Part shown: positions 5,474 to 64,000 of the stretch, piece after piece | Layout: each line of letters opens with the position of its first letter | Numbering within the stretch: position 1 is the stretch's first letter | DNA from: Escherichia phage vB_EcoM_G29 | DNA length: 64,000 nt | Direction: 5' to 3' (one strand) | Sequence record: MK327940.1 | Notes under the pieces: generated by a model | The model's database searches: none | Seen by the model: the letters and a program-made list of their open reading frames with translations, nothing else | Told to the model about the DNA's origin: nothing | Made by a program: the position numbers and the translations under genes

Positions 5474-5947
5474 TCATTTGATTTGTTTAGCAGACCAAAT
5501 GCGGTCTTTAATAATTTTTTGGATGTCTTCAACATACTCAAGAGAGTGAACATGTGGATTATCTTTGAAACTATAAGCACGGGCTAACTTTTGGCCTTCG
5601 GTTTTGATTACTAAAAGCTCTTTAAGGATAGCTTCATATTTAGCGATAATTCCTTTAACGATATTTTTTTCTTGTGCCGCTTTAGGATCTGCTTTAGGAG
5701 CAGGTTTACCCGAAGCCTTTGCAAAAGCAGCGCCAGTAGCAACTAAACTTTTCCAGGCCATACTAACTGCATTTCCCGTAAATCCTTCCGCTTTCATGTC
5801 GCGTGCAAACTGGAATCGCGATTCATCAGAAGCATCTTTATAGGAATATTTACCCGCGGCAATGGCAGCTTTTGCAACAGCTTGAATTTCGGTGCTAGAT
5901 GCTTCATTTAACACCGCTTCATTTAAAAATTGAGTATATGATTTCAT
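5474..5947 (-). CDS. internal head protein-like (capsid-targeting-sequence N-terminus)
   Basis: Start moved to ATG 5947 (MKSYTQFLNEAV...); TATAAATA late promoter at 5986-5993 and terminator at 5996-6022 lie inside the longer track ORF. Confidence 0.65.
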   Translation of the reverse strand: MKSYTQFLNEAVLNEASSTEIQAVAKAAIAAGKYSYKDASDESRFQFARDMKAEGFTGNAVSMAWKSLVATGAAFAKASGKPAPKADPKAAQEKNIVKGIIAKYEAILKELLVIKTEGQKLARAYSFKDNPHVHSLEYVEDIQKIIKDRIWSAKQIK

Positions 5948-5985
5948 CTTATTTCCTGTTTTAATTTGTAGATTTAATATACTAA

Positions 5986-5993
5986 TATTTATA
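5986..5993 (-). promoter_or_regulatory. T4 late promoter upstream of the internal-protein-like gene
   Basis: Plus-strand tatttata equals minus-strand TATAAATA, about 40 nt upstream of ATG 5947. Confidence 0.7.
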
Positions 5994-5995
5994 CC

Positions 5996-6022
5996 AAAAA
6001 GCCCCAACCTTTCGGTCGGGGC
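5996..6022 (-). terminator. Rho-independent terminator, second copy of the same element
   Basis: Identical hairpin and A-run; sits between the stable-RNA/tRNA region and the late promoter of the internal-protein gene. Confidence 0.7.
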
Positions 6023-6039
6023 TAAGCCTTGCGGCAACC

Positions 6040-6330
6040 TTGTCGGGGTTCCACCTGCTAAGGCAAGTGTTTGTACGAAACGCCGGGATTCGAACCCGGT
6101 TATTAAGTAGTTGACGCTACTCAATATTTTAAAAGGCCATATCTCGACCATATCCGAACGTTCCGTCAAAAACGCTACTCGGCTTACGGCAAAGATATTT
6201 CCTCGAATCGATAATTCGGTGCGCCGTTTCTGCTGTGATAGTAAAGAGCCAGAACACAGTAAAACTGTGGGAGGAAACTATACTCCAGGGAACATCAGTC
6301 CGACGACTTACCGGTAGCGACCCGGTTTCT
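6040..6330 (-). ncRNA. candidate small stable RNA(s), by analogy to T4 species 1/2 (rnaC/rnaD)
   Basis: Non-coding gap downstream of the tRNA cluster on the same strand; contains a tRNA-like T-arm (ccgggattcgaacccgg) but no complete cloverleaf. Confidence 0.25.
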
Positions 6331-6698: not shown

Positions 6699-6774
6699 TG
6701 GTCGAGGCAGTAGGGATCGAACCTACGACCTAGGACTTAGAAGGTCCTTGCTCTTCCTTCTGAGCTATGCCCCG
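6699..6774 (-). tRNA. tRNA-Arg (anticodon UCU)
   Basis: Cloverleaf folded by hand; anticodon loop cuUCUaa; T-loop TTCGATC; encoded CCA. Confidence 0.85.
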
Positions 6775-6778
6775 TAAT

Positions 6779-6854
6779 TGGGGTGACCGATGGGAGTCGA
6801 ACCCATGACTACGAGAATCACAATCTCGAGTTCTACCAACTGAACTACGGCCAC
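6779..6854 (-). tRNA. tRNA-His (anticodon GUG)
   Basis: Hand fold; anticodon stem cgaga/tctcg, loop uuGUGau; discriminator C73; no encoded G-1. Confidence 0.75.
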
Positions 6855-6968
6855 ATTAATACCTACTCCAACAATCAAGATGTCTTCACACGAAATTAAG
6901 AGAAGAGTGATCAGTTCAACCCCTATAATCGCGTCAAGTAGATATTAATGTGACAGTTGTCACAAATT

Positions 6969-7043
6969 TGGCGGACGTGATAGGATTCGAACCTATAACC
7001 AATCGCTTAACAGGCGATCGCTCTGCCATTGAGCTACACATCC
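6969..7043 (-). tRNA. tRNA-Asn (anticodon GUU)
   Basis: Hand fold; anticodon stem atcgc/gcgat, loop cuGUUaa; encoded CCA. Confidence 0.8.
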
Positions 7044-7047
7044 AAAT

Positions 7048-7134
7048 TGGTGGGGAGTGGTGGAGTCGAACCACCCGAGTCGCAATGACAATGGATTTAC
7101 AGTCCACACCGCTACCTCTACGGGATAACTCCCC
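7048..7134 (-). tRNA. tRNA-Tyr (anticodon GUA), long variable arm
   Basis: Hand fold; 87 nt; anticodon loop cuGUAaa; encoded CCA. Confidence 0.75.
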
Positions 7135-7143
7135 AAATTAATT

Positions 7144-7218
7144 TGGTGGCCCTGGGTGGAATTGAACCACCATCTGGCGATTATGAGTCGCTTGCTTGAA
7201 CCTTCCAGCTACAGGGCC
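7144..7218 (-). tRNA. tRNA with CAU anticodon (elongator Met or lysidine-modified Ile)
   Basis: Hand fold; anticodon loop cuCAUaa; T-stem ggtgg/ccacc; position matches the T4 tRNA-Ile slot. Confidence 0.75.
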
Positions 7219-7219
7219 T

Positions 7220-7295
7220 TGGTGCTGATTGACGGAATCGAACCGCCGACCTTCTCATTACAAGTGAGTTGCTCTACCTACTGAGCTAAATCAGC
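7220..7295 (-). tRNA. tRNA-Thr (anticodon UGU)
   Basis: Hand fold; anticodon loop cuUGUaa; encoded CCA. Confidence 0.85.
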
Positions 7296-7300
7296 AAAAC

Positions 7301-7390
7301 TGGCGGAGGCGATAGGATTTGAACCTATGAGTCGCCGGAGCGACTGCCGGTTTTCAAGACCGGTGCATTAAACCACTCTGCCACGCCTCC
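7301..7390 (-). tRNA. tRNA-Ser (anticodon UGA), long variable arm
   Basis: Hand fold; 90 nt; anticodon stem ccggt/accgg, loop cuUGAaa. Confidence 0.85.
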
Positions 7391-7392
7391 AG

Positions 7393-7466
7393 TCTCCGTG
7401 GCAGGATTTGAACCTACGACATTCTGCTCCCAAAGCAGACGCTCTACCAAACTGAGCTACACGGAG
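7393..7466 (-). tRNA. tRNA-Pro (anticodon UGG), CCA not encoded
   Basis: Hand fold; anticodon loop uuUGGga; 3' end abuts the tRNA-Ser 5' end, as in the T4 Pro-Ser dimeric precursor. Confidence 0.85.
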
Positions 7467-7476
7467 TAAATTAAAT

Positions 7477-7550
<74 letters not shown>

Positions 7551-7555
7551 AAATT

Positions 7556-7642
7556 TGGTGCGAGAAGTGGGACTCGAACCCACAAGGAAATCATTCCGCA
7601 GCATTTTAAGTGCTGTGCCTTTACCAATTTGGCCATTCTCGC
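7556..7642 (-). tRNA. tRNA-Leu (anticodon UAA), long variable arm
   Basis: Hand fold; anticodon stem cagca/tgctg, loop cuUAAaa. Confidence 0.85.
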
Positions 7643-7643
7643 G

Positions 7644-7716
7644 CTGGGAATAAAGGACTCGAACCTTTGCATCCTGGAATCAAAATCCAGTGCCTTACCA
7701 ACTTGGCTAATTCCCA
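7644..7716 (-). tRNA. tRNA-Gln (anticodon UUG), CCA not encoded
   Basis: Hand fold; anticodon stem ctgga/tccag, loop uuUUGau; one nucleotide from the tRNA-Leu 5' end (Gln-Leu dimer). Confidence 0.85.
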
Positions 7717-50313: not shown

Positions 50314-50330
50314 GAATAAAAGGAGCATCT

Positions 50331-51080
50331 ATGGCAAACATTATTCGTTGTAAATTACCAGATGGTGTTCATCGTTTTAAACCATTTACGGTAGAAGATT
50401 ATCGAGATTTTTTGTTAGTTCGAAACGATATAGAGCATCGGTCACCACAAGAACAAAAAGAAATAATTACTGATTTAATTGATGATTATTTTGGAGACTA
50501 TCCGAAGACTTGGCAACCATTTATATTTTTGCAGGTATTTGTAGGTTCAATAGGTAAAACTAAAGTACCAGTCACATTTGTATGTCCAAAATGTAAAAAA
50601 GAAAAGACAGTTCCATTTGAAATATATCAAAAAGAATTAAAGGAACCTATTTTTGATGTAGCTAATGTTAAAATTAAATTAAATTTTCCTTCTGAGTTTT
50701 ATGAAAATAAAGCAAAGATGATTACTGAAAATATTCATTCTGTTCAAGTAGATGAAATGTGGTATGATTGGAAGGAAATTAGTGAATCGAGTCAAATAGA
50801 ACTTGTTGACGCCATCGAGATAGAAACATTAGAAAAAATTCTCGATGCAATGAATCCTATTAATTTAACATTGCACATGTCGTGTTGTGATAAGTACATT
50901 AAAAAATACACTGATATAGTAGATGTGTTTAAGCTATTAGTTAATCCAGATGAGATATTTACTTTTTATCAAATTAATCACACGCTTGTAAAAAGTAATT
51001 ATAGCTTAAATTCAATAATGAAAATGATTCCTGCCGAGCGCGGATTCGTATTAAAACTGATTGAGAAGGATAAACAATAA
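50331..51080 (+). CDS. 51: baseplate hub assembly protein gp51
   Basis: 249 aa; synteny. Confidence 0.9.
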
Positions 51081-52252
51081 TGAGTATGTTGCAACGCCCC
51101 GGATATCCAAATCTCAGCGTTAAATTATTTGAGAGTTATGACGCTTGGAGTAATAATAGATTTGTTGAATTAGCTGCTACTATTACCACATTAACTATGC
51201 GGGATTCTCTTTATGGTCGAAATGAAGGAATGCTACAATTTTATGATTCTAAAAATATCCATACAAAAATGGATGGAAATGAAATAATTCAGATTTCTGT
51301 AGCTAATGCAAACGATATTAATAATGTTAAAACAAGAATTTATGGATGTAAGCATTTTTCTGTATCTGTAGATTCAAAAGGTGATAACATCATTGCTATT
51401 GAATTGGGAACTATTCATTCTATAGAAAATCTTAAATTTGGTAGACCATTTTTCCCTGATGCAGGTGAATCTATAAAAGAAATGCTTGGTGTCATTTATC
51501 AAGACCGCACATTATTAACTCCAGCAATAAATGCTATAAATGCTTATGTTCCTGATATTCCATGGACTAGCACATTTGAAAACTATTTGTCATATGTAAG
51601 AGAAGTTGCTCTAGCGGTAGGAAGCGATAAGTTCGTATTTGTATGGCAAGACATCATGGGAGTTAACATGATGGACTATGATATGATGATAAATCAAGAA
51701 CCATATCCAATGATTGTAGGTGAGCCAACTTTAATAGGTCAATTCGTCCAAGAATTGAAATATCCATTAGCATATGATTTTGTTTGGTTGACTAAATCAA
51801 ACCCGCATAAACGTGATCCAATGAAAAATGCTACTATCTATGCTCATTCATTTTTAGATTCTTCATTACCAATGATTACTACAGGAAAGGGTGAAAACTC
51901 TATTGTAGTGTCAAGGTCAGGTGCTTATTCTGAAATGACTTATAGAAATGGATATGAAGAAGCTATTCGTCTTCAGACTATGGCGCAATATGACGGCTAT
52001 GCTAAATGTTCTACTGTCGGTAATTTTAACTTGACTCCTGGCGTTAAAATTATTTTTAATGATAGTAAAAACCAATTTAAAACAGAATTTTACGTTGATG
52101 AAGTTATTCACGAATTATCAAATAATAATTCCGTAACTCATCTATATATGTTCACTAATGCAACGAAACTGGAAACAATCGACCCAGTTAAGGTTAAAAA
52201 TGAATTTAAAACTGATACTACCACTGAAGAAAGTAGTTCTTCCGATAAGTAA
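51080..52252 (+). CDS. 27: baseplate hub protein gp27
   Basis: 390 aa; synteny. Confidence 0.92.
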
Positions 52253-52733
52253 TAAAGAAGTTTCTATTCCTAAGATGGGTCTTAAACATTATAACATTTT
52301 AAAAGATGTTAAAGGTCCTGATGAAAATTTAAAGCTTCTTATTGATTCTATTTGTCCAAATTTATCACCGGCAGAAGTTGATTTCGTTTCTATTCATTTA
52401 TTGGAATTTAATGGAAAGATTAAATCTCGTAAAGAAATAGATGGCTATACTTATGACATTAATGATGTTTATGTATGCCAAAGATTAGAATTTCAATACC
52501 AAGGAAATACATTTTATTTTAGACCTCCTGGAAAATTTGAACAATTTTTAACGGTGAGCGATATGTTATCTAAATGCTTGCTTAAGGTCAACGATGAAGT
52601 TAAAGAAATTAATTTTCTTGAGATGCCAGCATTCGTTTTAAAATGGGCAAATGATATTTTTACAACTTTAGCAATTCCTGGCCCTAATGGTCCAATAACT
52701 GGAATTGGCAATATTATTGGATTATTTGAATGA
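52200..52733 (+). CDS. 28: baseplate hub protein gp28
   Basis: Start set at ATG 52200 (MNLKLILPL..., 177 aa); track ORF begins further upstream inside gene 27. Confidence 0.8.
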
Positions 52734-54502
52734 AAAAGCCACAAGAAATGCAAACGATGCGTAGAAAAGTTATTTCAGATAATAAACCAACACAGGAAGC
52801 GGCTAAATCCGCTTCCAATACTTTATCTGGACTTAATGACATTTCTACAAAATTGGATGATGCTCAAGCTGCTTCTGAATTAATAGCTCAAACCGTTGAA
52901 GAAAAATCGAATGAAATAATTGGAGCAATTGACAATGTAGAAAGCGCAGTGAGTGATACTACTGCTGGTTCTGAGTTAATTGCTGAAACTGTCGAAATTG
53001 GCAATAATATTAATAAAGAAATCGGTGAATCGCTCGGAAGTAAATTAGATAAATTAACGAGTTTACTCGAGCAAAAAATCCAGACAGCCGGAATTCAACA
53101 AACAGGAACTAGTTTAGCTACGGTTGAAAGCGCTATTCCTGTTAAAGTTGTTGAGGACGATACAGCTGAATCCGTGGGTCCTTTATTACCAGCTCCTGAA
53201 GCAGTTAATAATGATCCTGACGCTGATTTTTTCCCTGCCCCTCAACCAGTTGAACCTAAGCGAGAGTCACCGGAAGAAAAACAGAAAAAAGAAGCATTTA
53301 ATTTAAAATTATCTCAAGCTTTAGATAAATTAACAAAGACTGTTGATTTTGGATTTAAAAAATCCATTTCAATTACTGATAAAATATCAAGCATGCTATT
53401 TAAGTATACTGTCAGTGCTGCTATTGAAGCTGCTAAAATGGTTGCATTAATAATGGCTGTTGTTATTGGAATAGACCTACTGATGGTTCATTTTAAATAT
53501 TGGTCAGATAAATTTTCAAAAGCCTGGGATTTGTTTAGCACTGATTTTAAAACTTTTTCAAGCGAAACCGGAACTTGGGGTCCTTTATTACAGAGCATCT
53601 TTGAATCTATTGATGAAATTAAAAAGTTCTGGGAAGCGGGAGATTGGGGCGGTTTGACGGTAGCTATTGTAGAAGGGCTTGGAAAGGTTCTTTATAATTT
53701 AGGAGAACTTATTCAGCTTGGAATGGCTAAATTATCAGCAGCAATTCTTCGAGTTATTCCTGGTATGAAAGATACTGCTGACGAAGTAGAAGGAAGAGCA
53801 CTGGAAAATTTCCAAAATTCTACTGGAGCATCTCTCAATAAAGAAGACCAGGAAAAAGTTGCGAATTATCAAGATAAACGAATGAATGGAGACCTTGGTC
53901 CGATAGCAGAAGGACTAGACAAAATTGCGAACTGGAAAACTCGTGCATCTAACTGGATTCGTGGTGTTGATAATAAAGAAGCATTGACAACTGATGAAGA
54001 ACGCGCAGCAGAAGAAGAAAAATTAAAGCAGCTTTCACCAGAAGAAAGAAAAAATGCTTTAATGAAGGCTAATGAAGCCCGTGCCGCGATGATTCGTTTT
54101 GAAAAATATGCTGATTCAGCTGATATGAGTAAAGACTCAACGGTTAAATCAGTTGAAGCTGCCTATGAAGACCTTAAAAAACGAATGGATGACCCGGATT
54201 TAAATAATTCACCGGCAGTTAAAAAAGAACTTGCTGCTAGATTTTCTAAAATTGATGCTACTTATCAAGAGCTCAAGAAAAATCAGCCTAATGCCAAACC
54301 TCAAACTTCTGCTAAATCGCCAGAAGCAAAACAAGTCCAGGTAATAGAAAAGAACAAAGCACAGCAAGCTCCTATTCAACAAGCATCTCCTTCAATCAAT
54401 AATACTAATAATGTTATTAAGAAAAATACTGTCGTTCATAATATGACACCCGTAACGAGCACGACTGCTCCTGGTGTATTTGATGCGACTGGAGTTAATT
54501 AA
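52730..54502 (+). CDS. 29: tail tape measure / baseplate hub protein gp29
   Basis: 590 aa; synteny. Confidence 0.92.
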   Translation: MKKPQEMQTMRRKVISDNKPTQEAAKSASNTLSGLNDISTKLDDAQAASELIAQTVEEKSNEIIGAIDNVESAVSDTTAGSELIAETVEIGNNINKEIGESLGSKLDKLTSLLEQKIQTAGIQQTGTSLATVESAIPVKVVEDDTAESVGPLLPAPEAVNNDPDADFFPAPQPVEPKRESPEEKQKKEAFNLKLSQALDKLTKTVDFGFKKSISITDKISSMLFKYTVSAAIEAAKMVALIMAVVIGIDLLMVHFKYWSDKFSKAWDLFSTDFKTFSSETGTWGPLLQSIFESIDEIKKFWEAGDWGGLTVAIVEGLGKVLYNLGELIQLGMAKLSAAILRVIPGMKDTADEVEGRALENFQNSTGASLNKEDQEKVANYQDKRMNGDLGPIAEGLDKIANWKTRASNWIRGVDNKEALTTDEERAAEEEKLKQLSPEERKNALMKANEARAAMIRFEKYADSADMSKDSTVKSVEAAYEDLKKRMDDPDLNNSPAVKKELAARFSKIDATYQELKKNQPNAKPQTSAKSPEAKQVQVIEKNKAQQAPIQQASPSINNTNNVIKKNTVVHNMTPVTSTTAPGVFDATGVN

Positions 54503-54510
54503 GGAATAAT

Positions 54511-55605
54511 ATGGCAATTGTTAAAGAAATAACTGCTGATTTAATTAAAAAGTCCGGTGAGAAAATTTCAGCCGGACAGAGTACTAAATCAGAAGTAGCA
54601 ACTAAAACATACACTGCCCAGTTTCCAACTGGGCGTGCTAGTGGTAATGACACTACAGGGGACTTCCAGGTAACAGATCTATATAAGAATGGATTATTAT
54701 TTACTGCATACAATATGTCATCTAGGGATTCTGGAAGTCTTAGAACGATGAGATCTAACTACTCTTCTTCATCTTCGAGTATTTTACGTACAGCCAGAAA
54801 CACTATCAGTAATACAGTATCAAAACTATCAAATGGACTAATATCAGATAATAATTCAGGAACAATAAGTAAAGTTCCTGTTGCAAATATTCTTTTACCT
54901 AGATCTAAATCTGACGTCGATACGTCATCACATAGATTTAATGATGTTCAAGATAGTCTTATTACAAAAGGTGGAGGTACTGCTACTGGTGTGCTAAGCA
55001 ATATGGCTTCAACCGCAGTATTTGGAGCGCTGGAAAGTATAACACAAGGTATAATGGCTGATAATAATGAACAGATTTATACGACAGCCAGAAGCATGTA
55101 CGGCGGTGCTGAAAATAGAACTAAAGTGTTCACTTGGGATTTGACTCCGCGCTCAACAGAAGATTTAATGGCTATTATTAATATCTATCAGTATTTTAAC
55201 TATTTTTCTTACGGTGAAACTGGTAAATCTCAATATGCTGCTGAAATAAAAGGATATCTAGATGAGTGGTACCGTTCTACTTTTATTGAGCCGTTAACTC
55301 CAGAAGATGCAGTTAAAAATAAGACGTTATTTGAGAAAATGACATCGAGTTTAACTAACGTTCTTGTAGTTTCAAACCCGACAATTTGGATGGTGAAAAA
55401 CTTTGGTGCAACATCTAAGTTTGATGGAAAAACGGAAATATTCGGTCCATGTCAAATCCAGAGTATCAGATTTGATAAAACACCTAATGGTAACTTTAAC
55501 GGATTAGCTATTGCTCCAAATCTCCCTAGTACATTTACTCTCGAGATTACTATGAGAGAAATTATCACGTTAAACCGTGCTTCTTTATATGCGGGGACTT
55601 TTTAA
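54511..55605 (+). CDS. 48: baseplate tail tube cap gp48
   Basis: 364 aa; synteny. Confidence 0.92.
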   Translation: MAIVKEITADLIKKSGEKISAGQSTKSEVATKTYTAQFPTGRASGNDTTGDFQVTDLYKNGLLFTAYNMSSRDSGSLRTMRSNYSSSSSSILRTARNTISNTVSKLSNGLISDNNSGTISKVPVANILLPRSKSDVDTSSHRFNDVQDSLITKGGGTATGVLSNMASTAVFGALESITQGIMADNNEQIYTTARSMYGGAENRTKVFTWDLTPRSTEDLMAIINIYQYFNYFSYGETGKSQYAAEIKGYLDEWYRSTFIEPLTPEDAVKNKTLFEKMTSSLTNVLVVSNPTIWMVKNFGATSKFDGKTEIFGPCQIQSIRFDKTPNGNFNGLAIAPNLPSTFTLEITMREIITLNRASLYAGTF

Positions 55606-56570
55606 TGTATTCTTTAGAGGAATTTAATAATCAAGCAATAAACGCAGATTTCCAACGTAATAATATGTTCAGCTGTGTTTTTGCTACAACTCCATCAACT
55701 AAAAGCTCTTCGTTGATAAGTTCAATTAGCAACTTTTCTTATAATAACTTGGGCCTAAATTCAGATTGGTTAGGATTAACTCAAGGCGATATTAATCAGG
55801 GAATTACTACGCTAATTACAGCTGGCACACAAAAACTGATAAGAAAATCAGGGGTTAGTAAATATCTTATTGGTGCCATGAGTCAACGTACAGTTCAAAG
55901 TTTATTAGGCTCATTTACAGTTGGTACATATTTAATTGACTTCTTTAACATGGCATATAACTCATCTGGATTGATGATATACTCTGTAAAAATGCCAGAG
56001 AATAGATTATCCTATGAAACTGACTGGAACTATAATTCTCCTAATATTCGTATAACTGGGAGAGAATTAGACCCTTTGGTTATTTCATTCAGAATGGATT
56101 CAGAAGCTTGTAACTATCGTGCAATGCAAGACTGGGTTAACGCTGTTCAAGACCCAGTAACTGGATTGCGTGCTTTGCCGCAAGATGTCGAGGCTGATAT
56201 TCAGGTTAATCTTCATTCTCGCAATGGATTACCACATACTGCGGTGATGTTCACTGGATGCATTCCAGTGTCCGTAAGCGCTCCTGAGTTATCATATGAT
56301 GGAGATAACCAAATAACTACATTTGATGTTACTTTTGCGTATAGAGTCATGCAGGCTGGAGCAGTTGATAGACAAGCTGCGCTTGAATGGCTTGAATCTG
56401 CTGCTATAAATGGTATTCAAAGCGTTCTCGGAAATAGTGGAGGTGTCACTGGACTATCTAATTCGCTTTCACGACTTAGTAGATTAGGGGGAACTGCAGG
56501 AAGCATTTCAAATATTAACACTATGACAGGAATTGTCAATTCGCAAAGTAAAATATTAGGAGCAATATAA
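55605..56570 (+). CDS. 54: baseplate tail tube initiator gp54
   Basis: 321 aa; synteny. Confidence 0.92.
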   Translation: MYSLEEFNNQAINADFQRNNMFSCVFATTPSTKSSSLISSISNFSYNNLGLNSDWLGLTQGDINQGITTLITAGTQKLIRKSGVSKYLIGAMSQRTVQSLLGSFTVGTYLIDFFNMAYNSSGLMIYSVKMPENRLSYETDWNYNSPNIRITGRELDPLVISFRMDSEACNYRAMQDWVNAVQDPVTGLRALPQDVEADIQVNLHSRNGLPHTAVMFTGCIPVSVSAPELSYDGDNQITTFDVTFAYRVMQAGAVDRQAALEWLESAAINGIQSVLGNSGGVTGLSNSLSRLSRLGGTAGSISNINTMTGIVNSQSKILGAI

Positions 56571-56573
56571 CAA

Positions 56574-56600
56574 TGGGGACCTTTCGGTCCCCATATTTTT
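56574..56600. terminator. bidirectional terminator after gene 54
   Basis: tggggacctttcggtcccca hairpin followed by tattttta; lies between convergent genes. Confidence 0.75.
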
Positions 56601-56889
56601 ATTTACGGAATGAAATGAAAGCAGCAACTGAAGCAACTAAACTGTCTTCAATATAAACTTCAATTTTTACCGGAGCTTCTGACTCAAATTTACCTGTTAC
56701 TACACCCTGAAAAATACTTTCAGTCTGTTCTGGCTTTGAAAAATTTTCAGAAGGAAAAATTCCGAACTTTTTATCTGTTCCAAAAATTTTGATAAATTCA
56801 TCGTAAACTGCTTCATTAAAAGCATTATCAGCAGGAATAACGCCTTCAACTACAAGTTCTTGACCTAAAAAGCGCAAAGAAGATTTCAT
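56599..56889 (-). CDS. hypothetical protein (alt.-3 position)
   Basis: 96 aa track ORF; early promoter GTTTACA, 17 bp, TATAGT on the minus strand at 56906-56948. Confidence 0.6.
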   Translation of the reverse strand: MKSSLRFLGQELVVEGVIPADNAFNEAVYDEFIKIFGTDKKFGIFPSENFSKPEQTESIFQGVVTGKFESEAPVKIEVYIEDSLVASVAAFISFRK

Positions 56890-56949
56890 TTTGTGTTCCT
56901 CATGTTATGTCAGTAAGACTACTATAACACAACACGAGGGACTTGTAAA

Positions 56950-59007
56950 CTACATCTTGAACTTTTTAGACATTCCGTTGATGTTAACCAAAGAAGCTAA
57001 GATTTGAGAAACTTCGTTTTCCTCTTCTTTTGATTCTTCTACAAGGAATTGATTAAATCCAGCCATTGGACGAACTTCACCAGTTTCCATTAGATGGTCG
57101 CCATCATATACTGATTCTTCTAATTGTTCAGAAGGAGGAACGATTGTACCTTCGATTAGATACTTGTTATAAGCAGTTTCTTTCATAAAGTAAGTACTTA
57201 CTTTATTAATCTTCAGTAAAATTCCACGTGGTAGAATAACTTCAGCTTCTGACGGAAATCCTGATAAATGACCCGGAACGATAACTTTGATTCGCTCAGC
57301 TCCTTTAATTACCATACCCACGCTAGTTTCAGCATCTTCATTAGCATATGTAGAATGACTACCCATATGCATCAAATCTTCTGCATCAACGGAACCTTCT
57401 CCTTCACCAGAAAATACTGCGCCGGAATCATCTAGAGCCATATAGTTTTTACCATGCTCACCGAAGATATTTGGTTTAAGCGATGTGGATACGAAGTTCT
57501 TGAAATAGAACATTTTATTTTCAATGTTATGACGCAAAGTTTTAAAGGTAACTTCTTGTCCACGGTAAAGTGTAGTTCCTGGAGGAAGAACTGAACCTTT
57601 AGCGAATGCAGAATCAAGCGTCTCAATATGTTTAATAGCTCGTTCCATATATTCTTCACGGGTAGAATCTGGTTTACCCAAAAGGAACGAGTTCATTTCA
57701 ACATATGAATCTGCACAATAATCTTCAATTACATCAGATTCAGCTTGAGTTAATCCTTTTGGAGTTACTTCAGTGCTTGCGTATTCATATGCCTGAGCAG
57801 CAGATTCATTAATCAATTTATAAATGCCATTCATGACAAATTGAATAATAGCTGTCTTTTCATCTGGCGTAGCTTTAGAACCTTTAACCAAATCATTGAT
57901 AATTTTCTTAATAACATCAAAGCTATTAGAAATATTAATATCAGCAAGATCGCTTAAAATTTTATCAGTCTTATAATCAAAGAATTCTTTATTCTTTAAA
58001 TATTCTTGAGAACCTTGATATGTTATATCGCTCTGTAACTTGATAGATGGATCACGTAAACGTGCATGGGCTAATGCAATATGATTTCGGAAGCTTTCGA
58101 GTTCATAATCACTAGATTTAAAACGAGAAGCGCTTCTCATACCGCCTATAGCTCCTTTGCTGAAGTTTGAACCAATTTGAATAACGCCAGAGTTCATTGG
58201 TCCTTCTGCTTTATACACCGGAACTTTAGATTCAAACTCTTGATATTTCTTAGCAGCGAAGCTATCACCCTGAAGTGAAGCATCAACAGTAGAATATTGA
58301 GCTTGTGCTGCTAATCGACGACTAATTTTAGTTTTCTGAATAACAGCTTGGTCCGTGCGCTTATCATTTTCTAAAGCAATAGAAGCAGCAACAGCAACAG
58401 CTTTAGGAACAGCATTACCTGTTTTAACATCTACATAAACATCACCAACCTTTGATTCAACTTTTGTGAATAACTCAGTTGAAATAGGAGGTACACCTGG
58501 AATGTCTTCTAAATTGGCATTTTTACGATAAACCATAATATATGCGTACTTTTTATCATAATCCCAGATTTCCTTTAAAAGAACATATCGACCTGCTCCT
58601 TTAGTACGTACTAAACGGTCAGCAATAACTTGCATTTGACGAGCAGCGCCATTTGTTTTACTCTTTAGTACGCGGAATAAGCATGCATCAATTTTATACT
58701 GTTTCATTGTTTGAAGAGCAGTATCAAAAACAGCGTTAATGACGCCAATTGGATTTCCACCCAAGTTTCTAAGTTTAACCAGTGATAATTTCTCGTTGAC
58801 ACCTATCATTACGATATGCATCATTTTATCGCCCGGCTTAACGTTTTTATTTGTATCACCTCCAGAGGTGTATGTACAAAATCTAAATCCAGGAAGCACG
58901 CTTTCTTCGCCGGCTTGAATAGCAAAAATTTGAGGTATTTTATGCTTAGGATTTAAGTTAACAACCGGCGCCGAAGCGCCGTCAAATAATTCTGTAATAA
59001 GTTCCAT
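56950..59007 (-). CDS. Alt-like ADP-ribosyltransferase paralogue
   Basis: 685 aa; shares N-terminus MELITELFD and LYRG...FVSTSL...EAEVILPRG motifs with the adjacent alt but is divergent overall. Confidence 0.8.
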   Translation of the reverse strand: MELITELFDGASAPVVNLNPKHKIPQIFAIQAGEESVLPGFRFCTYTSGGDTNKNVKPGDKMMHIVMIGVNEKLSLVKLRNLGGNPIGVINAVFDTALQTMKQYKIDACLFRVLKSKTNGAARQMQVIADRLVRTKGAGRYVLLKEIWDYDKKYAYIMVYRKNANLEDIPGVPPISTELFTKVESKVGDVYVDVKTGNAVPKAVAVAASIALENDKRTDQAVIQKTKISRRLAAQAQYSTVDASLQGDSFAAKKYQEFESKVPVYKAEGPMNSGVIQIGSNFSKGAIGGMRSASRFKSSDYELESFRNHIALAHARLRDPSIKLQSDITYQGSQEYLKNKEFFDYKTDKILSDLADINISNSFDVIKKIINDLVKGSKATPDEKTAIIQFVMNGIYKLINESAAQAYEYASTEVTPKGLTQAESDVIEDYCADSYVEMNSFLLGKPDSTREEYMERAIKHIETLDSAFAKGSVLPPGTTLYRGQEVTFKTLRHNIENKMFYFKNFVSTSLKPNIFGEHGKNYMALDDSGAVFSGEGEGSVDAEDLMHMGSHSTYANEDAETSVGMVIKGAERIKVIVPGHLSGFPSEAEVILPRGILLKINKVSTYFMKETAYNKYLIEGTIVPPSEQLEESVYDGDHLMETGEVRPMAGFNQFLVEESKEEENEVSQILASLVNINGMSKKFKM

Positions 59008-59010
59008 GAT

Positions 59011-61062
59011 TTATCCTTGAACGAACTTGTAAGGCATGTTTGTAATATCTATGCAAGACGCAATAATTCCAAGAGATGATTCTACTTTCTGTTTAACATT
59101 TGATGAAACAAATGATGCAAAGTCAACTCTATCTTCTATATCACCTGTCATTGTAACTACTTCGCCGGTTTCCATTAAACGGTCACCGTCATAAATTACT
59201 GATTCGGTGAGTTCTTCGGTGGTCATAACTTCAGCTTGAATAAGCTTGTTGTTAGTTTTGACTGTTCCATCATTGTAAGATGCATCAGTTATTTTATTAA
59301 CTTTGACCATTAATCCACGTGGCAAAATGACTTCCATTTCATTTGAAGGCGCTAAACTTCCACCGGGTAAAACAACATTGACTTTATCAGCCCCAGTAAT
59401 AACCCATCCAATTCCGACTAAATTATCGCTAGAATTAACAAGCCCTTCATCATTTTTATCGATAGAAATGTTTAGACGCTTTTCATCTGGTAAAACACCA
59501 ACAGCTGAATCAGTCATCCAAGTACCAAAAATGTTTGGATATAATGATGTTGATACAAAATTTCTAAAATAAAAAACTCGATTTTTTACCATTGCTTCGT
59601 ATATTGAAGGTAACATTCGTTGTGAACGATACAAAGTAATACCTTTTGGTAATCGTTCACCATTTTTAAAGGCTGAATCTAAATTATCAATAGCTTTTTC
59701 TATGTCAGATGCTGTCAAAATACTTGTACGCTCATCTGGATTATATAATCCCAAAAGAGCATTATTTATGTCTACATATCCTGAACCTACGTATTCACGA
59801 ATTCCGCGTTTTTGTGCTGGTGTGTATTTAGATGAATCTTTATTTTCGACTATAGGATGTAATGACCATCCAGCTGTAAGAGCATATCCACGTAATTCTC
59901 TTCGAATAATCTTTGTTTTTATTGCATTCCAAGAATTTTGTACTAACTCATTTGCAGCATCTTGGTTTAAATGCGAATGTTTGTTAATATTTCTTTCAAA
60001 CCAAGCACCTTTATATTTTTCTAAAGTATTATCGACGATAGAAGCAATAGTTTCTAAAGTTTTTATTGAAGTAATAGATTCTTTTCGTAATTTTTCTAAA
60101 GCTTTATTTTTTATTTCTGCATTAATAATGGATTCTTTATCTTCAGGAATTATAGAAGCTTCTCTGAATGCCATCCCAGCTGTAACACTGCTAAGAGCAT
60201 TCTCTAGTGCAAATCCTGAAGTAGAAATTACCGTTAATTCATTAGAATCAGAAATTAAAGGCGCATCAGCGGGTTTATTTAATTCTGCTGCTGAAGCCTC
60301 AAATTTTTGAAACATCGGTGTTTCAAATCTAGAAGATTCCAATGACTGACTTTGTGCAATTGCTCTACGGGAAATTTTAACTTTAACGATTACAGCTTGG
60401 TCAGAACGTTTATCATTTTCTTGTGCAATAGATGCTGCAATTGCCTCATTTTTGGTTACTTGAGCTCCGGTATCTTTATTGATATAAACATCACCGACCT
60501 TCGATTCAACTTTAGTAAAGAGCTCGGTACTAATTTCCGGAACTCCTGGAATGTCTTCTAGTGATACATTTTTGCGATGTATAAGAATATATGCATACTT
60601 TTTATCATAATCCCAGAGTTCCTTAAGAAGGACGTATCTGCCACCTGAACGACTACGGATAAGTCTATCAGCAATAACTTGAATTTGTCGAGCTTGATCA
60701 GCGGTTTTAGACTTAAGAATACGAAGCATACAAGCATCAATTTTATACTGACGCATTGTTTGCATTGCAACAGTAAAAACTGAATTGATATAATTAATTG
60801 GGCTTGGACCAAGACCTTTTAATTTAGCAATTGAACCTTTAGCGGTTAATGTAAAAGGAACAATATGCATCATTTTATCGCCCATTTTTAAATCGCGATT
60901 AGTATCACCTCCAGATGTATAGGTACATAAACGAAAGCCTGGTTGTTCAATTGCATCATCAACATGAACTGAAAAAATTTGCGGTATTTTCTTCTTTGGA
61001 TTTAAGTTTGTAATCGGAAGAGTAGTATCTTCGTCAAATAATTCTGTAATAAGTTCCATCAT
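59011..61062 (-). CDS. alt: ADP-ribosyltransferase Alt (packaged, modifies host RNA polymerase)
   Basis: 683 aa; matches my memory of T4 Alt; LYRS...FVSTSL...EMEVILPRG; late promoter TATAAATA (minus) at 61083-61090. Confidence 0.9.
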   Translation of the reverse strand: MMELITELFDEDTTLPITNLNPKKKIPQIFSVHVDDAIEQPGFRLCTYTSGGDTNRDLKMGDKMMHIVPFTLTAKGSIAKLKGLGPSPINYINSVFTVAMQTMRQYKIDACMLRILKSKTADQARQIQVIADRLIRSRSGGRYVLLKELWDYDKKYAYILIHRKNVSLEDIPGVPEISTELFTKVESKVGDVYINKDTGAQVTKNEAIAASIAQENDKRSDQAVIVKVKISRRAIAQSQSLESSRFETPMFQKFEASAAELNKPADAPLISDSNELTVISTSGFALENALSSVTAGMAFREASIIPEDKESIINAEIKNKALEKLRKESITSIKTLETIASIVDNTLEKYKGAWFERNINKHSHLNQDAANELVQNSWNAIKTKIIRRELRGYALTAGWSLHPIVENKDSSKYTPAQKRGIREYVGSGYVDINNALLGLYNPDERTSILTASDIEKAIDNLDSAFKNGERLPKGITLYRSQRMLPSIYEAMVKNRVFYFRNFVSTSLYPNIFGTWMTDSAVGVLPDEKRLNISIDKNDEGLVNSSDNLVGIGWVITGADKVNVVLPGGSLAPSNEMEVILPRGLMVKVNKITDASYNDGTVKTNNKLIQAEVMTTEELTESVIYDGDRLMETGEVVTMTGDIEDRVDFASFVSSNVKQKVESSLGIIASCIDITNMPYKFVQG

Positions 61063-61111
61063 AGCCTCTCTAGTGTTTATTCTATTTATAAAATTAAAGG
61101 CCCGAAGGCCT

Positions 61112-61300
61112 TTAGTAATCTAGTGGTAAGAGAGTACGATATATTTCAAACTTTGGTCCTTTTTCATAGGCATCAAATGTTTCTGTAAATTTATTATAAG
61201 CGTATGCATCTACAAATTCGAGAATGACTTGTGATACAGAAGTAGAAACATCTCCACCTTCTTTTTGAGCAATGACAATTGTTTCTAAGTAAGCTTTCAT
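61112..61300 (-). CDS. 30.9: hypothetical small protein (30.9 position)
   Basis: 62 aa track ORF; symbol by synteny only. Confidence 0.55.
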   Translation of the reverse strand: MKAYLETIVIAQKEGGDVSTSVSQVILEFVDAYAYNKFTETFDAYEKGPKFEIYRTLLPLDY

Positions 61301-62760
61301 AAACCAGTTACCTCATGAAAATCACCAAATACATCCTCGAATGTATTAGCTTTAGTTTTATCTTCACGTAAACGAATCGCAATCGGAAGAAATAATTTAA
61401 CGTAATCAGTGCGGCCATCAGATTTTAACCAACCGTTGCATTCGCACTCTAGAATTTTTCCAATATAATAATTTTGGTTTTCCATAATGCGAGTACGGTC
61501 AAGTTCATGCGATTTTACACCGGCTTTATCTTTTAAGCCTGAACCAGCATTTACCTTAATTTTTCCACACTCTGATTCAAGAATAAATCCACCCGCTTTA
61601 GTAGGGTCTTTACGGTGAGGATAAATTCCTACAATTTTTAAATCAACATCAATTACTTCTTTAAATTTATAGAGATTTTTTGAACGAGCATTTTCCCACA
61701 ATCCATCGGTATTTTTGAGAATAATACCTTCAAGACCTTGGTCAATATACTTTTTATAAATTACCTTAGCTTCATCTAGGTTATTTACTACCTGGTTTTC
61801 AATTAAAATTACTTTATCATAACCTGATGTCATTTGTTCTAGTTTAGAAAAACGTACATCATATTTCAAACGAAATGCAGGAAGACCGTATATTTCTACC
61901 AACGGGACATAATCCCAGACCTGAAACTTCATGCATTGAGCTTCTTTTTCAGAAATGGTTCCCTTTAAAGATTTATTGGCGATGCCATTAGATGCAGTAC
62001 GTGATTCAGCTACTTCGGCGAATTCTTTAGCTTTACTAATTTCAGGATAAGCATCAAAAAGAAAATCTAGGCCTTCTGGCTCCTTTTCAACTTGCTCATG
62101 GTATACCAATTCGCCATCAATTAACACACCTTCTGGATGAATCTGGCGAGCTTCTGTAGTCATTTTGATTAACTCTTCCTTAAGAAGATCTAATCCTAGA
62201 TATTCATTACCAGCTCGTGATAAAAGACGAACATCATCTAATTCATCACCTCTGACTTCAGCAAAACACCGAGCTCCATCAGCTTTTAACTGGGCAAAGG
62301 CTGGAAATTTGATATTCTTATTAATGCCTTTTTCATCATAAGAACTTGCAAGCATTTGAGGTTGTTCAGGAATTAAACCTGGCCAAACTTTGTTTGCAAT
62401 AGATACTGAAGCACCGCATTCAAGGTCTCGCATCATCACCCGACGCAAAACTTCAACATCATCTTTTTTACCGTCAGTAATATATCCAGTTAATTCCTCA
62501 ATTGCCGCATTTCCAGTCAATTTCCGAGTAGCTAACGTGAATTCAATGAAGTCAAGCATATCGGTAAGAGTCAACATTCCAAAACTCTGGGTAGCAATAC
62601 CCGGTTTAGGCCATTTCTTGATATAATACTGTAACCCACGAGAATAAGTCAGACGATATACTCGTTTAAGCAATTCATTATCTTTATTCTTTTCAAGAAT
62701 TGCTTGCTTCTGCTTAGTTGAACCAATAGATGCTATTTCGTTCAGAATTTTAAGAATCAT
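61297..62760 (-). CDS. 30: ATP-dependent DNA ligase gp30
   Basis: 487 aa; adenylation lysine motif context KADGAR. Confidence 0.95.
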   Translation of the reverse strand: MILKILNEIASIGSTKQKQAILEKNKDNELLKRVYRLTYSRGLQYYIKKWPKPGIATQSFGMLTLTDMLDFIEFTLATRKLTGNAAIEELTGYITDGKKDDVEVLRRVMMRDLECGASVSIANKVWPGLIPEQPQMLASSYDEKGINKNIKFPAFAQLKADGARCFAEVRGDELDDVRLLSRAGNEYLGLDLLKEELIKMTTEARQIHPEGVLIDGELVYHEQVEKEPEGLDFLFDAYPEISKAKEFAEVAESRTASNGIANKSLKGTISEKEAQCMKFQVWDYVPLVEIYGLPAFRLKYDVRFSKLEQMTSGYDKVILIENQVVNNLDEAKVIYKKYIDQGLEGIILKNTDGLWENARSKNLYKFKEVIDVDLKIVGIYPHRKDPTKAGGFILESECGKIKVNAGSGLKDKAGVKSHELDRTRIMENQNYYIGKILECECNGWLKSDGRTDYVKLFLPIAIRLREDKTKANTFEDVFGDFHEVTGL

Positions 62761-63026
62761 TGTTCATCCTTTAGAGTTTGGTTTACAGCTCTATTATAAA
62801 TCAATTCATCATTAAGCTCAGTCAAAGACCTGTGGTACGTGGTTCTAACTTTATTTCCTTGCATCCAGTGCTTGACGTAAATGAAACCTTGCTCTACACA
62901 TTTTTTAAAAATTCGTTCGTCTTTTTGAGCTCGGAATTCTGGATTGCATCTAAAAAATTGATTTACGTGACCGTAATCACGTGTAGTATTACCTTCATTT
63001 TCATAAATAGTATGAACAACAAACAT
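62757..63026 (-). CDS. 30.1: hypothetical protein (30.1 position)
   Basis: 89 aa track ORF; start overlaps the upstream stop. Confidence 0.65.
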   Translation of the reverse strand: MFVVHTIYENEGNTTRDYGHVNQFFRCNPEFRAQKDERIFKKCVEQGFIYVKHWMQGNKVRTTYHRSLTELNDELIYNRAVNQTLKDEQ

Positions 63027-63880
63027 TAGAATGCTCCTTGGAAAATATTATCACCACTACCACTAGTAAGTCTATTAAAATACCCTGCGTCGCCAGGCTT
63101 AATATAACTCCACGTATGGAATGGATGCATCTGATGTGAGTGTGTATAATATGGATGATATGGATTATAAGGATTAAATCCAGGAGTTCTCCAAGTAGTG
63201 TTCCAACGAAAAGAATCGTTTTTAATCATCTTCTCAATTACATCTTTTATAACTTTTTCACTATCAAAACTTTCTTTATTTTCCTTCGATGGAAAAAGCT
63301 TATTCTCTACATCATTCCATGTATAAACTCGCTGTGCAGTTTTTGGAATACTGTCACGTTCCCCTCGAGCCATCCAATAAACAGGAACATTTAATATTTC
63401 ACTCGCGTGATCGCAGTGGTGAGCGAGATCGTCAATATAACAAATTACGTTATATTTCTCTTTTGCCTTTTTGAACAACTCTTCTTTTGAAGAATCATGA
63501 CCACACATCAATACTTCTGAGAAGGCACCAGGAAAAAGAGCATTCAAATTAAATTGACGATTCAGCAGAGCGTCAATAGAATCACCCAATGCTGTAACAG
63601 CTACAAAATTATAATCTTCTTTTAATTTGTTAATTACACACAGGGCATCTTTATATGGAGACAAGTAACGAATAAAATCTGAACGATTGTATTTTTCAAT
63701 TAACTTGACGCCAAGTTCTTCATCACAATTAAAGAGTTTACCAGGAGAAATAAATTTCTCATCTTGGATCATTTTTAAAATATGTTCTAACGGAAGATTA
63801 TATTTCTGAGCAAAATAAGGAAGGCCTGATTGCCAGCTTAAACATACTCCATCAATATCAGTTAAAATAGTAGGCTTCAT
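63026..63880 (-). CDS. 30.2: hypothetical protein with HAD-like DxDG motif (30.2 position)
   Basis: 284 aa; N-terminal ILTDIDGV resembles HAD phosphatase motif I. Confidence 0.65.
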   Translation of the reverse strand: MKPTILTDIDGVCLSWQSGLPYFAQKYNLPLEHILKMIQDEKFISPGKLFNCDEELGVKLIEKYNRSDFIRYLSPYKDALCVINKLKEDYNFVAVTALGDSIDALLNRQFNLNALFPGAFSEVLMCGHDSSKEELFKKAKEKYNVICYIDDLAHHCDHASEILNVPVYWMARGERDSIPKTAQRVYTWNDVENKLFPSKENKESFDSEKVIKDVIEKMIKNDSFRWNTTWRTPGFNPYNPYHPYYTHSHQMHPFHTWSYIKPGDAGYFNRLTSGSGDNIFQGAF

Positions 63881-64000
63881 AGAGAGTCTCTTAATAGGTT
63901 TAACACATCAATAAATTCAGCTTCGGTTAATATTGTATCATCTTTTGTTAGACCACTAGCCATGCTGTGCTTCAAAACTTTTCCTTTCGAGGCGTGTAAT
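63877..64000 (-). CDS. 30.3: hypothetical protein, N-terminal end cut by window edge (30.3 position)
   Basis: Open minus-strand frame from the window end to TGA overlapping the 30.2 ATG (ATGA); C-terminus ...DVLNLLRDSL. Confidence 0.5.
   Translation of the reverse strand, partial: LHASKGKVLKHSMASGLTKDDTILTEAEFIDVLNLLRDSL

Follow-up and report, generated by a model that had tools for sequence, protein, structure and literature searches.

What does a T-even phage do with two Alt genes side by side? The question is raised by a stretch of 64,000 nucleotides (nt) from Escherichia phage vB_EcoM_G29 (sequence record MK327940.1), referred to here as the window, whose minus strand holds two tandem open reading frames, one at 56950-59007 (685 amino acids (aa), starting MELITELFDGAS) and one at 59011-61062 (683 aa from the first ATG). 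A preliminary description of this DNA had taken both for Alt-type ADP-ribosyltransferase (ART) genes and had suggested that the second is an additional packaged transferase with a different host target. Both genes are indeed of this type, and the second, ORF B, turns out to be an intact, strongly constrained paralogue of Alt whose damaged remains are annotated in T4 as alt.-1 and alt.-2. We favour, with a probability of roughly 0.6, the reading that ORF B encodes a functional second ART of the Alt family that is made late, packaged, processed by the prohead protease gp21 and injected, and that its target set differs from, or only partly overlaps, that of Alt.

ORF B as an intact paralogue of Alt

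ORF B and Alt align over their full length at 42% identity (BLASTP, E 9e-161), a similarity far beyond chance, and Pfam PF03496 (ADPrib_exo_Tox) matches both proteins (E 6e-20 and 3e-36). Both are also matched by PHROG 802, 'Alt-like RNA polymerase ADP-ribosyltransferase' (E 2e-256 for ORF B), and NCBIfam holds no model for either. The sequence motifs quoted in the preliminary description are all present: LYRG/LYRS, FVSTSL in both proteins, and EAEVILPRG/EMEVILPRG. The two genes and the parts of ORF B are the following:

59011-61059, minus strand: alt (gene A), 682 aa, orthologous to T4 Alt; frame open as far as 61062
56950-59007, minus strand: ORF B, 685-aa Alt paralogue and full-length form of T4 alt.-1/alt.-2
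58291-59007, minus strand: ORF B residues 1-239, N-terminal domain in common with Alt, about 66% identity
57712-58290, minus strand: ORF B residues 240-432, all-helical central region (model and alignment)
57115-57711, minus strand: ORF B residues 433-631, ADP-ribosyltransferase domain, ending at the gp21-type motif LEE-631 (Pfam, model and alignment)
57562-57564, 57487-57489, 57247-57249 and 57241-57243, minus strand: ORF B catalytic residues R482, S507, E587 and E589, respectively
56950-57114, minus strand: ORF B residues 632-685 and stop, acidic segment at the C-terminus, bearing the YDGD..ETGE motif found family-wide (homology)

The promoter-proximal gene A had been taken for T4 Alt in the preliminary description, and the comparison bears this out at 96% nucleotide and 98% amino acid identity. 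Gene A has gp21 sites ITE-6 and LTE-619 and the catalytic residues R478, S-T-S and E574-x-E576. Two adjacent ATGs stand at its start (61057-61062, minus strand); the T4 annotation uses the second (59011-61059, 682 aa), which is also favoured by the spacing from the ribosome-binding site. The N-terminal propeptide of Alt has been reported both as six residues (PMC5694885, ITE-6) and as seven (PMC9026906), a discrepancy that would disappear were translation to begin at the first ATG (MMELITE).

ORF B shares with Alt not only its length (685 versus 682 aa) but also a three-part architecture, an ART fold of the R-S-ExE type, the positions of the gp21 motifs and a place in the same predicted late operon, directly next to alt. 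The first nine residues of the two proteins are the same, the ORF B start, MELITE followed by LFD, being the gp21 ITE-6 propeptide site, and PF26846 (Tevenvirinae_ADPRT) appears in the precomputed annotation of ORF B homologues. We propose that residues 1-239 form a module for targeting to the prohead core. The central region is another matter, as residues 240-432 are essentially unalignable with their Alt counterpart (7-25% identity); their proposed role is that of the target-selecting part of the effector.

The ART fold of ORF B is indicated by the PF03496 match and by an AlphaFold2 (AF2) model. A PDB sequence search with ORF B returned no solved relative at E <= 0.01, so the fold is established through the model. 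The catalytic set is complete, consisting of R482, S507-T-S509 and E587-A-E589. Pairwise alignment with Alt retains both glutamates, E587 and E589, and an alignment of 60 diverse homologues has only nine invariant columns, four of which are R482, S507, E587 and E589, with S509 at least 90% conserved. The ADP-ribosylating turn-turn (ARTT) loop, which contributes to substrate recognition in related toxins, reads LSGFPSEAE in ORF B and includes the aromatic residue typical of most family members, whereas in the T4-Alt lineage it reads SLAPSNEME or LSPQSQEME and lacks the aromatic residue.

The preliminary view that the second paralogue is intact is confirmed not only by the catalytic residues, all of which are kept, but also by the pattern of substitution. 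Six ORF B orthologues are each exactly 685 codons long and free of stops, and R482, S507, E587 and E589 are unchanged across them. The ratio of non-synonymous to synonymous rates (dN/dS) for the whole gene is 0.03-0.07, or 0.044 when pooled over 15 pairs (1,150 synonymous versus 206 non-synonymous differences). By region, it is 0.022 in the N-terminal domain, 0.075 in the central region, 0.036 in the ART domain and 0.032 in the C-terminal segment, which makes the N-terminal domain the most strongly constrained part of the protein. ORF B is therefore under strong purifying selection.

Recurrent loss and wide distribution of ORF B

T4 follows the window colinearly, at 96-97% identity, through alt.1, alt and ORF B up to nt 348; the T4 alignment then skips to the final 20 nt of ORF B and runs on through alt.-3. 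The segment that T4 lacks is the following:

56970-58668, not strand-specific: 1,699-bp segment absent from T4 and T4-type phages (alignment)

The deletion is bounded by 9-nt direct repeats CTAAA(G/A)AGT, CTAAAGAGT at 58660-58668 and CTAAAAAGT at 56961-56969, one copy of which is left in T4. An extra 1-nt frameshift after ...GGDTNK divides the T4 remnant into alt.-1 (61 aa) and alt.-2 (67 aa), together corresponding to ORF B residues 1 to about 117. The PHROG families of alt.-1 and alt.-2 match ORF B residues 1-56 (2e-40) and 62-117 (1e-37), respectively, far better than they match Alt. Taken together, the colinearity, the repeat junction and the PHROG matches indicate that T4 carries the remnant of a whole ORF B gene; judged from these alignments, alt.-1 and alt.-2 are its wreck.

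Existing annotations tell a different story. In T4, alt.-1 and alt.-2 are annotated as having arisen when the 'first part' of alt was duplicated long ago, whereas our comparison shows a whole-gene paralogue that T4 has lost. In T6 (MH550421), ORF B is a 'hypothetical protein' with the remark 'apparent insertion in alt.-2; also similar to alt', which reverses the polarity, since it is T4 that has the deletion. In T2 (MH751506), it is likewise a 'hypothetical protein' with the note 'alt.-1'. The annotations of this locus in T4, T2 and T6 would all benefit from correction. The preliminary description had allowed that the second gene might be nothing more than the ordinary neighbour of alt in T4. 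As to position this is right, the locus being that of alt.-1/alt.-2; however, the T4 copy is broken by the 1-nt frameshift and the 1,699-bp deletion, whereas the gene is whole here, in T2, in T6 and in about 400 other records. That alt.-1 and alt.-2 are paralogous to alt, and that phage 44RR has a full-length duplicate of alt, was noted some time ago (Nolan et al. 2006, PMC1524935); beyond that paper, we found no phage paper mentioning alt.-1 or alt.-2 in the literature searched.

The T4 junction, seen as an uninterrupted match to the 421-nt T4 remnant, occurs in at least 40 records among the matches listed, including RB55, RB59, ACG-C40, SG1 and vB_EcoM_112. Only such full-length matches were counted, because the number of records covered to 80% or more (487) is uninformative: the first 348 nt of the query match intact ORF B as well. 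The deletion thus represents a natural polymorphism rather than a laboratory artefact.

Intact ORF B is common. The part of the protein that is absent from T4 was found by tblastn at 95% or higher amino acid identity in 401 phage records, and all 15 records sampled from this class hold a second matching place, which is Alt. The intact 685-codon gene is present in both T2 (L009 5744-7801) and T6 (L010 8302-10359). In an identity matrix of Tequatroviruses and the Dhakavirus IME281, the Alt-family proteins fall into two orthologous clades, A and B, with cross-clade identity of 33-44%. ORF B of the window is 97-99% identical to its counterparts in ZCEC15, SH7 and HY01, 99% to those in T2 and T6, and 52% to the second gene of IME281, as against 34% to IME281 gene A. 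Since it groups with IME281 gene B, it is not an orthologue of T4 Alt or, for that matter, of any Alt, but a paralogue. The locus order in IME281 is the same (alt.1, A, B, alt.-3), which places the duplication before the split between Tequatrovirus and Dhakavirus. Tandem full-length Alt paralogues likewise stand between alt.1 and alt.-3 in 44RR (ORF187c), in the Dhakaviruses IME281 and JS10 (second alt) and in SP18 ('altb') (PMC1524935), although the IME281 orthologue of ORF B is, as said, only distantly similar.

Within Tequatrovirus, the locus occurs in three states: A and B together (the majority, including the window, T2 and T6), A with a deleted B (T4 type), and a single hybrid gene. The hybrid, found in ECML-134, SCS4 and Yersinia phage PST, consists of Alt residues 1 to about 150 followed by the remainder of ORF B. 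It replaces the tandem pair (in ECML-134 at L011 1602-3662), and the ECML-134 crossover lies at a 22-nt exact word common to the paralogues (nt 443 of window gene A, nt 440 of ORF B). These isolates mean that there are viable phages in which the B type is the only Alt-family effector region. Two metagenomic Logan contigs also carry hybrids, with other crossover points (L003 5001-7055 and L004 5001-7061; proteins P0005 and P0006). We considered whether A/B chimeras are artefacts of k-mer assembly and rejected this as a general explanation, as isolates ECML-134, SCS4 and PST carry the hybrid; those on the two Logan contigs could be such artefacts.

Alt itself is dimorphic in Tequatrovirus, as revealed by comparison of window gene A, ZCEC15, HY01, T2, T6 and IME281. 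The T4-type protein has 682-686 aa and the T2/T6/HY01-type 697 aa; the two types are 97-100% identical over residues 1-240, 12-68% over 241-585 and 88-100% from 586 onwards. The ART region of HY01-type Alt shares 88-97% identity with that of gene A in Dhakavirus IME281, whereas the N-terminal domains are only 30-62% identical. This pattern looks like an effector cassette exchanged between genera, and the alignments point to an Alt locus made up of a lineage-specific delivery module and exchangeable effector cassettes. ORF B is widely distributed, with recurrent loss.

Proposed packaging, activity and targets of ORF B

T4 Alt (gpAlt) is a head-packaged mono-ADP-ribosyltransferase of the NAD+:arginine type. 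Its cleavage at ITE-6 and LTE-619 by gp21, the prohead protease, leaves a mature protein of 68.2 kDa (PMC5694885), and the mass calculated for gene A residues 7-619, 68.2 kDa, matches the published value. ORF B has an identical ITE-6 and, in the column homologous to LTE-619 of Alt, LEE-631. E631 is invariant in a 12-sequence alignment (A1), and both (L/I)-x-E motifs are conserved family-wide. As in Alt, the second motif is followed by YDGD..ETGE and an acidic tail, a segment (residues 632-685) that is homologous to the 63-residue C-terminal propeptide cut off T4 Alt by gp21. The predicted mature ORF B, residues 7-631, has a mass of 69.1 kDa. Packaging of ORF B is strongly suggested by the combination of an Alt-like N-terminal domain, both gp21 motifs and a predicted late operon in common with alt.

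The operon has a single candidate late promoter:

61083-61090, minus strand: TATAAATA (T4 late-promoter box), 23 nt upstream of the alt start codon

The whole window has 24 late-promoter boxes against 10 expected, and the one ahead of alt is the sole box within 50314-64000, which leaves it as the only candidate late promoter for both alt and ORF B. No promoter was seen between the two genes in a sequence scan, only one site in the alt/ORF B interval resembles a terminator, a weak hairpin of 6 pairs located in ORF B, and the first terminator downstream of ORF B comes after alt.-3. The ORF B start codon lies 3 nt past the alt stop and is preceded by an AAGGA Shine-Dalgarno sequence of its own.

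From this arrangement a course of events can be proposed. ORF B would be transcribed late, together with alt, from the single late promoter and translated from its own Shine-Dalgarno sequence. Its Alt-like N-terminal domain would bring it into the prohead core, where gp21 would trim it at ITE-6 and LEE-631 to a mature enzyme of about 69 kDa. Injected with the DNA, this enzyme would carry out NAD+-dependent mono-ADP-ribosylation of arginines in host proteins. Most likely, then, ORF B is a second packaged, injected and arginine-specific ART. A target set that differs from, or only partly overlaps, that of Alt is plausible and would be expected because the central helical region and the ARTT loop are unlike those of Alt.

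ModA and ModB of T4 are early, non-packaged proteins of about 200 aa, without the N-terminal and central regions of Alt and ORF B. They belong with ORF B to the Alt/VIP2 R-S-E clade of ARTs (PMC5512222). The bacterial R-S-E toxins (Vis, C3, iota/CDTa/VIP2, Certhrax) differ from it in being secreted, in having other delivery modules and in lacking phage-head targeting.

Several observations weigh against the reading we favour. The gene is dispensable, the same deletion being found in T4 and in at least 40 other listed records. Truncated ORF B proteins also exist: P0007 (624 aa), P0008 (528 aa) and P0010 (415 aa) are 98-99% identical to ORF B, and each represents 7-36 member sequences, a number of which lie on contigs of about 166 kb. 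It may be that ORF B was disrupted independently, in ways other than the T4-type deletion, or that the genes were called differently. Since (L/I)-x-E motifs are short and occur in several copies per protein, the predicted cleavage sites rest on position homology and not on the motif alone. Divergence of the recognition regions is no proof of different targets. Finally, in the literature searched we found no virion proteomics or functional work on ORF B.

How do other explanations fare? ORF B might be a packaged, active ART that is redundant with Alt, modifying Arg265 in the alpha subunit of RNA polymerase and other Alt substrates as a dosage or back-up copy. In favour of this, the architecture, N-terminus, processing motifs and operon of ORF B are the same as those of Alt, and the existence of viable phages that lack one effector or the other (that of B in T4-type phages, that of Alt in ECML-134 and PST) fits at least partial redundancy. 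However, the A and B lineages, with their cross-identity of 33-44%, have been separate since before the two genera split, the central region cannot be aligned with that of Alt and the ARTT loop is different. Moreover, most phages retain both genes under strong constraint, which would be unexpected for a purely redundant copy, and we therefore regard this explanation as unlikely.

An active enzyme that is never packaged, acting late in the producing cell or released at lysis, seems more doubtful still. ModA and ModB, which are early genes, have no Alt N-terminal domain, whereas ORF B retains that domain at 66% identity with a dN/dS of 0.022. It also retains both gp21 motifs and the acidic C-terminal propeptide, which would serve no purpose outside the prohead. 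What speaks for this alternative is that packaging of ORF B is itself deduced from sequence and that T4 does have two ARTs of this superfamily, ModA and ModB, that are not packaged (PMC5512222). That ORF B has no catalytic role, being a decaying duplicate or a pseudoenzyme on its way to the T4 state, is hardly credible: although T4-type phages have deleted the gene and some database entries show it truncated, its 685-codon frame is intact in the six phages sampled, its catalytic residues are invariant, dN/dS in the ART domain is 0.036 and orthologues have been kept across genera.

Surroundings of the locus and meaning for T-even phages

The window is a segment of a Tequatrovirus genome, and over 56500-61400 its sequence matches both vB_EcoM_G4498 and G4500, two Escherichia phages, at 100% identity. 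The T4 gene order is kept, with genes 29, 48 and 54 on the plus strand followed on the minus strand by alt.-3, the two long open reading frames, alt.1 and DNA ligase. The remaining features of the neighbourhood are the following:

61112-61300, minus strand: alt.1, 62 aa, Pfam Phage_blade; upstream neighbour of alt
61095-61114, minus strand: intrinsic-terminator-like hairpin TAAAGGCCTTCGGGCCTTTA, then ATTTTAT...; annotated as a terminator also in NC_054918
56921-56949, minus strand: sigma-70 or T4-early-type promoter-like site (G)TTTACA-17-TATAGT with extended TG (consensus match only)
56599-56889, minus strand: alt.-3 (DUF5498, 96 aa), the gene with which the minus-strand block ends
56573-56594, both strands: bidirectional terminator hairpin between alt.-3 and gene 54, annotated in NC_054918

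The hairpin at 61095-61114 ends the ligase/alt.1 transcript directly ahead of the alt late promoter. A scan for sigma-70 promoters showed no enrichment over shuffled sequences (20 versus 18), so that only the late box and the one strong site ahead of alt.-3 were considered. This latter site begins straight after the ORF B stop and is kept in T4 despite the deletion; alt.-3 may therefore have early expression of its own in addition to late read-through. C-terminal extensions of alt.-3 allow T4 to escape the CmdTAC ADP-ribosyltransferase defence (PMC11618068), and this gene adjoins two phage ARTs. A 202-aa antisense open reading frame inside alt (59702-60310, plus strand) was dismissed as a by-product of the long opposite open frame.

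Elsewhere in the window, a cluster of 11 tRNA genes lies at 6699-7716 on the minus strand (Arg, His, Asn, Tyr, Met(CAT), Thr, Ser, Pro, Gly, Leu and Gln), all confirmed by Rfam. T4 has eight tRNAs, without His, Asn and Tyr. A 94-nt 'tRNA-Lys(TTT)' called by ARAGORN at 6073-6166 (minus strand), inside the open reading frame 5474-6169, lacks Rfam support and is probably a false positive.

The novelty implied by the preliminary description has to be given up. ORF B is already known as an annotation, since RefSeq NC_054918 (vB_EcoM_G4498) names both genes 'Alt-like RNA polymerase ADP-ribosyltransferase' and T2, T6 and hundreds of relatives carry the gene; duplications of alt, too, had been noted in 2006 (PMC1524935). 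The practical value of our results is modest, and they reveal no new kind of system. A useful by-product is that alt.-1/alt.-2 can be re-read as a deletion remnant, being neither a partial duplication nor an insertion.

What the locus does suggest concerns the T-even phages at large. Knowledge of injected phage ADP-ribosyltransferases comes nearly all from T4, a phage that has lost ORF B. Since T2, T6 and most sequenced Tequatroviruses retain the gene under strong constraint, some of the means by which T-even phages take over the host have probably never been examined biochemically. A bolder, tentative idea is that T-even phages normally inject two different ARTs and that the T4 set (Alt, ModA and ModB) is a reduced one. 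ORF B might then have host targets of its own, for example a component of defence, toxin-antitoxin or translation systems and not RNA polymerase alpha, and the Alt locus might be a polymorphic-effector locus. If this were true, the presence or absence of ORF B would contribute to the known ways in which T2 or T6 differ from T4 when taking over the host or in their sensitivity to defence systems.

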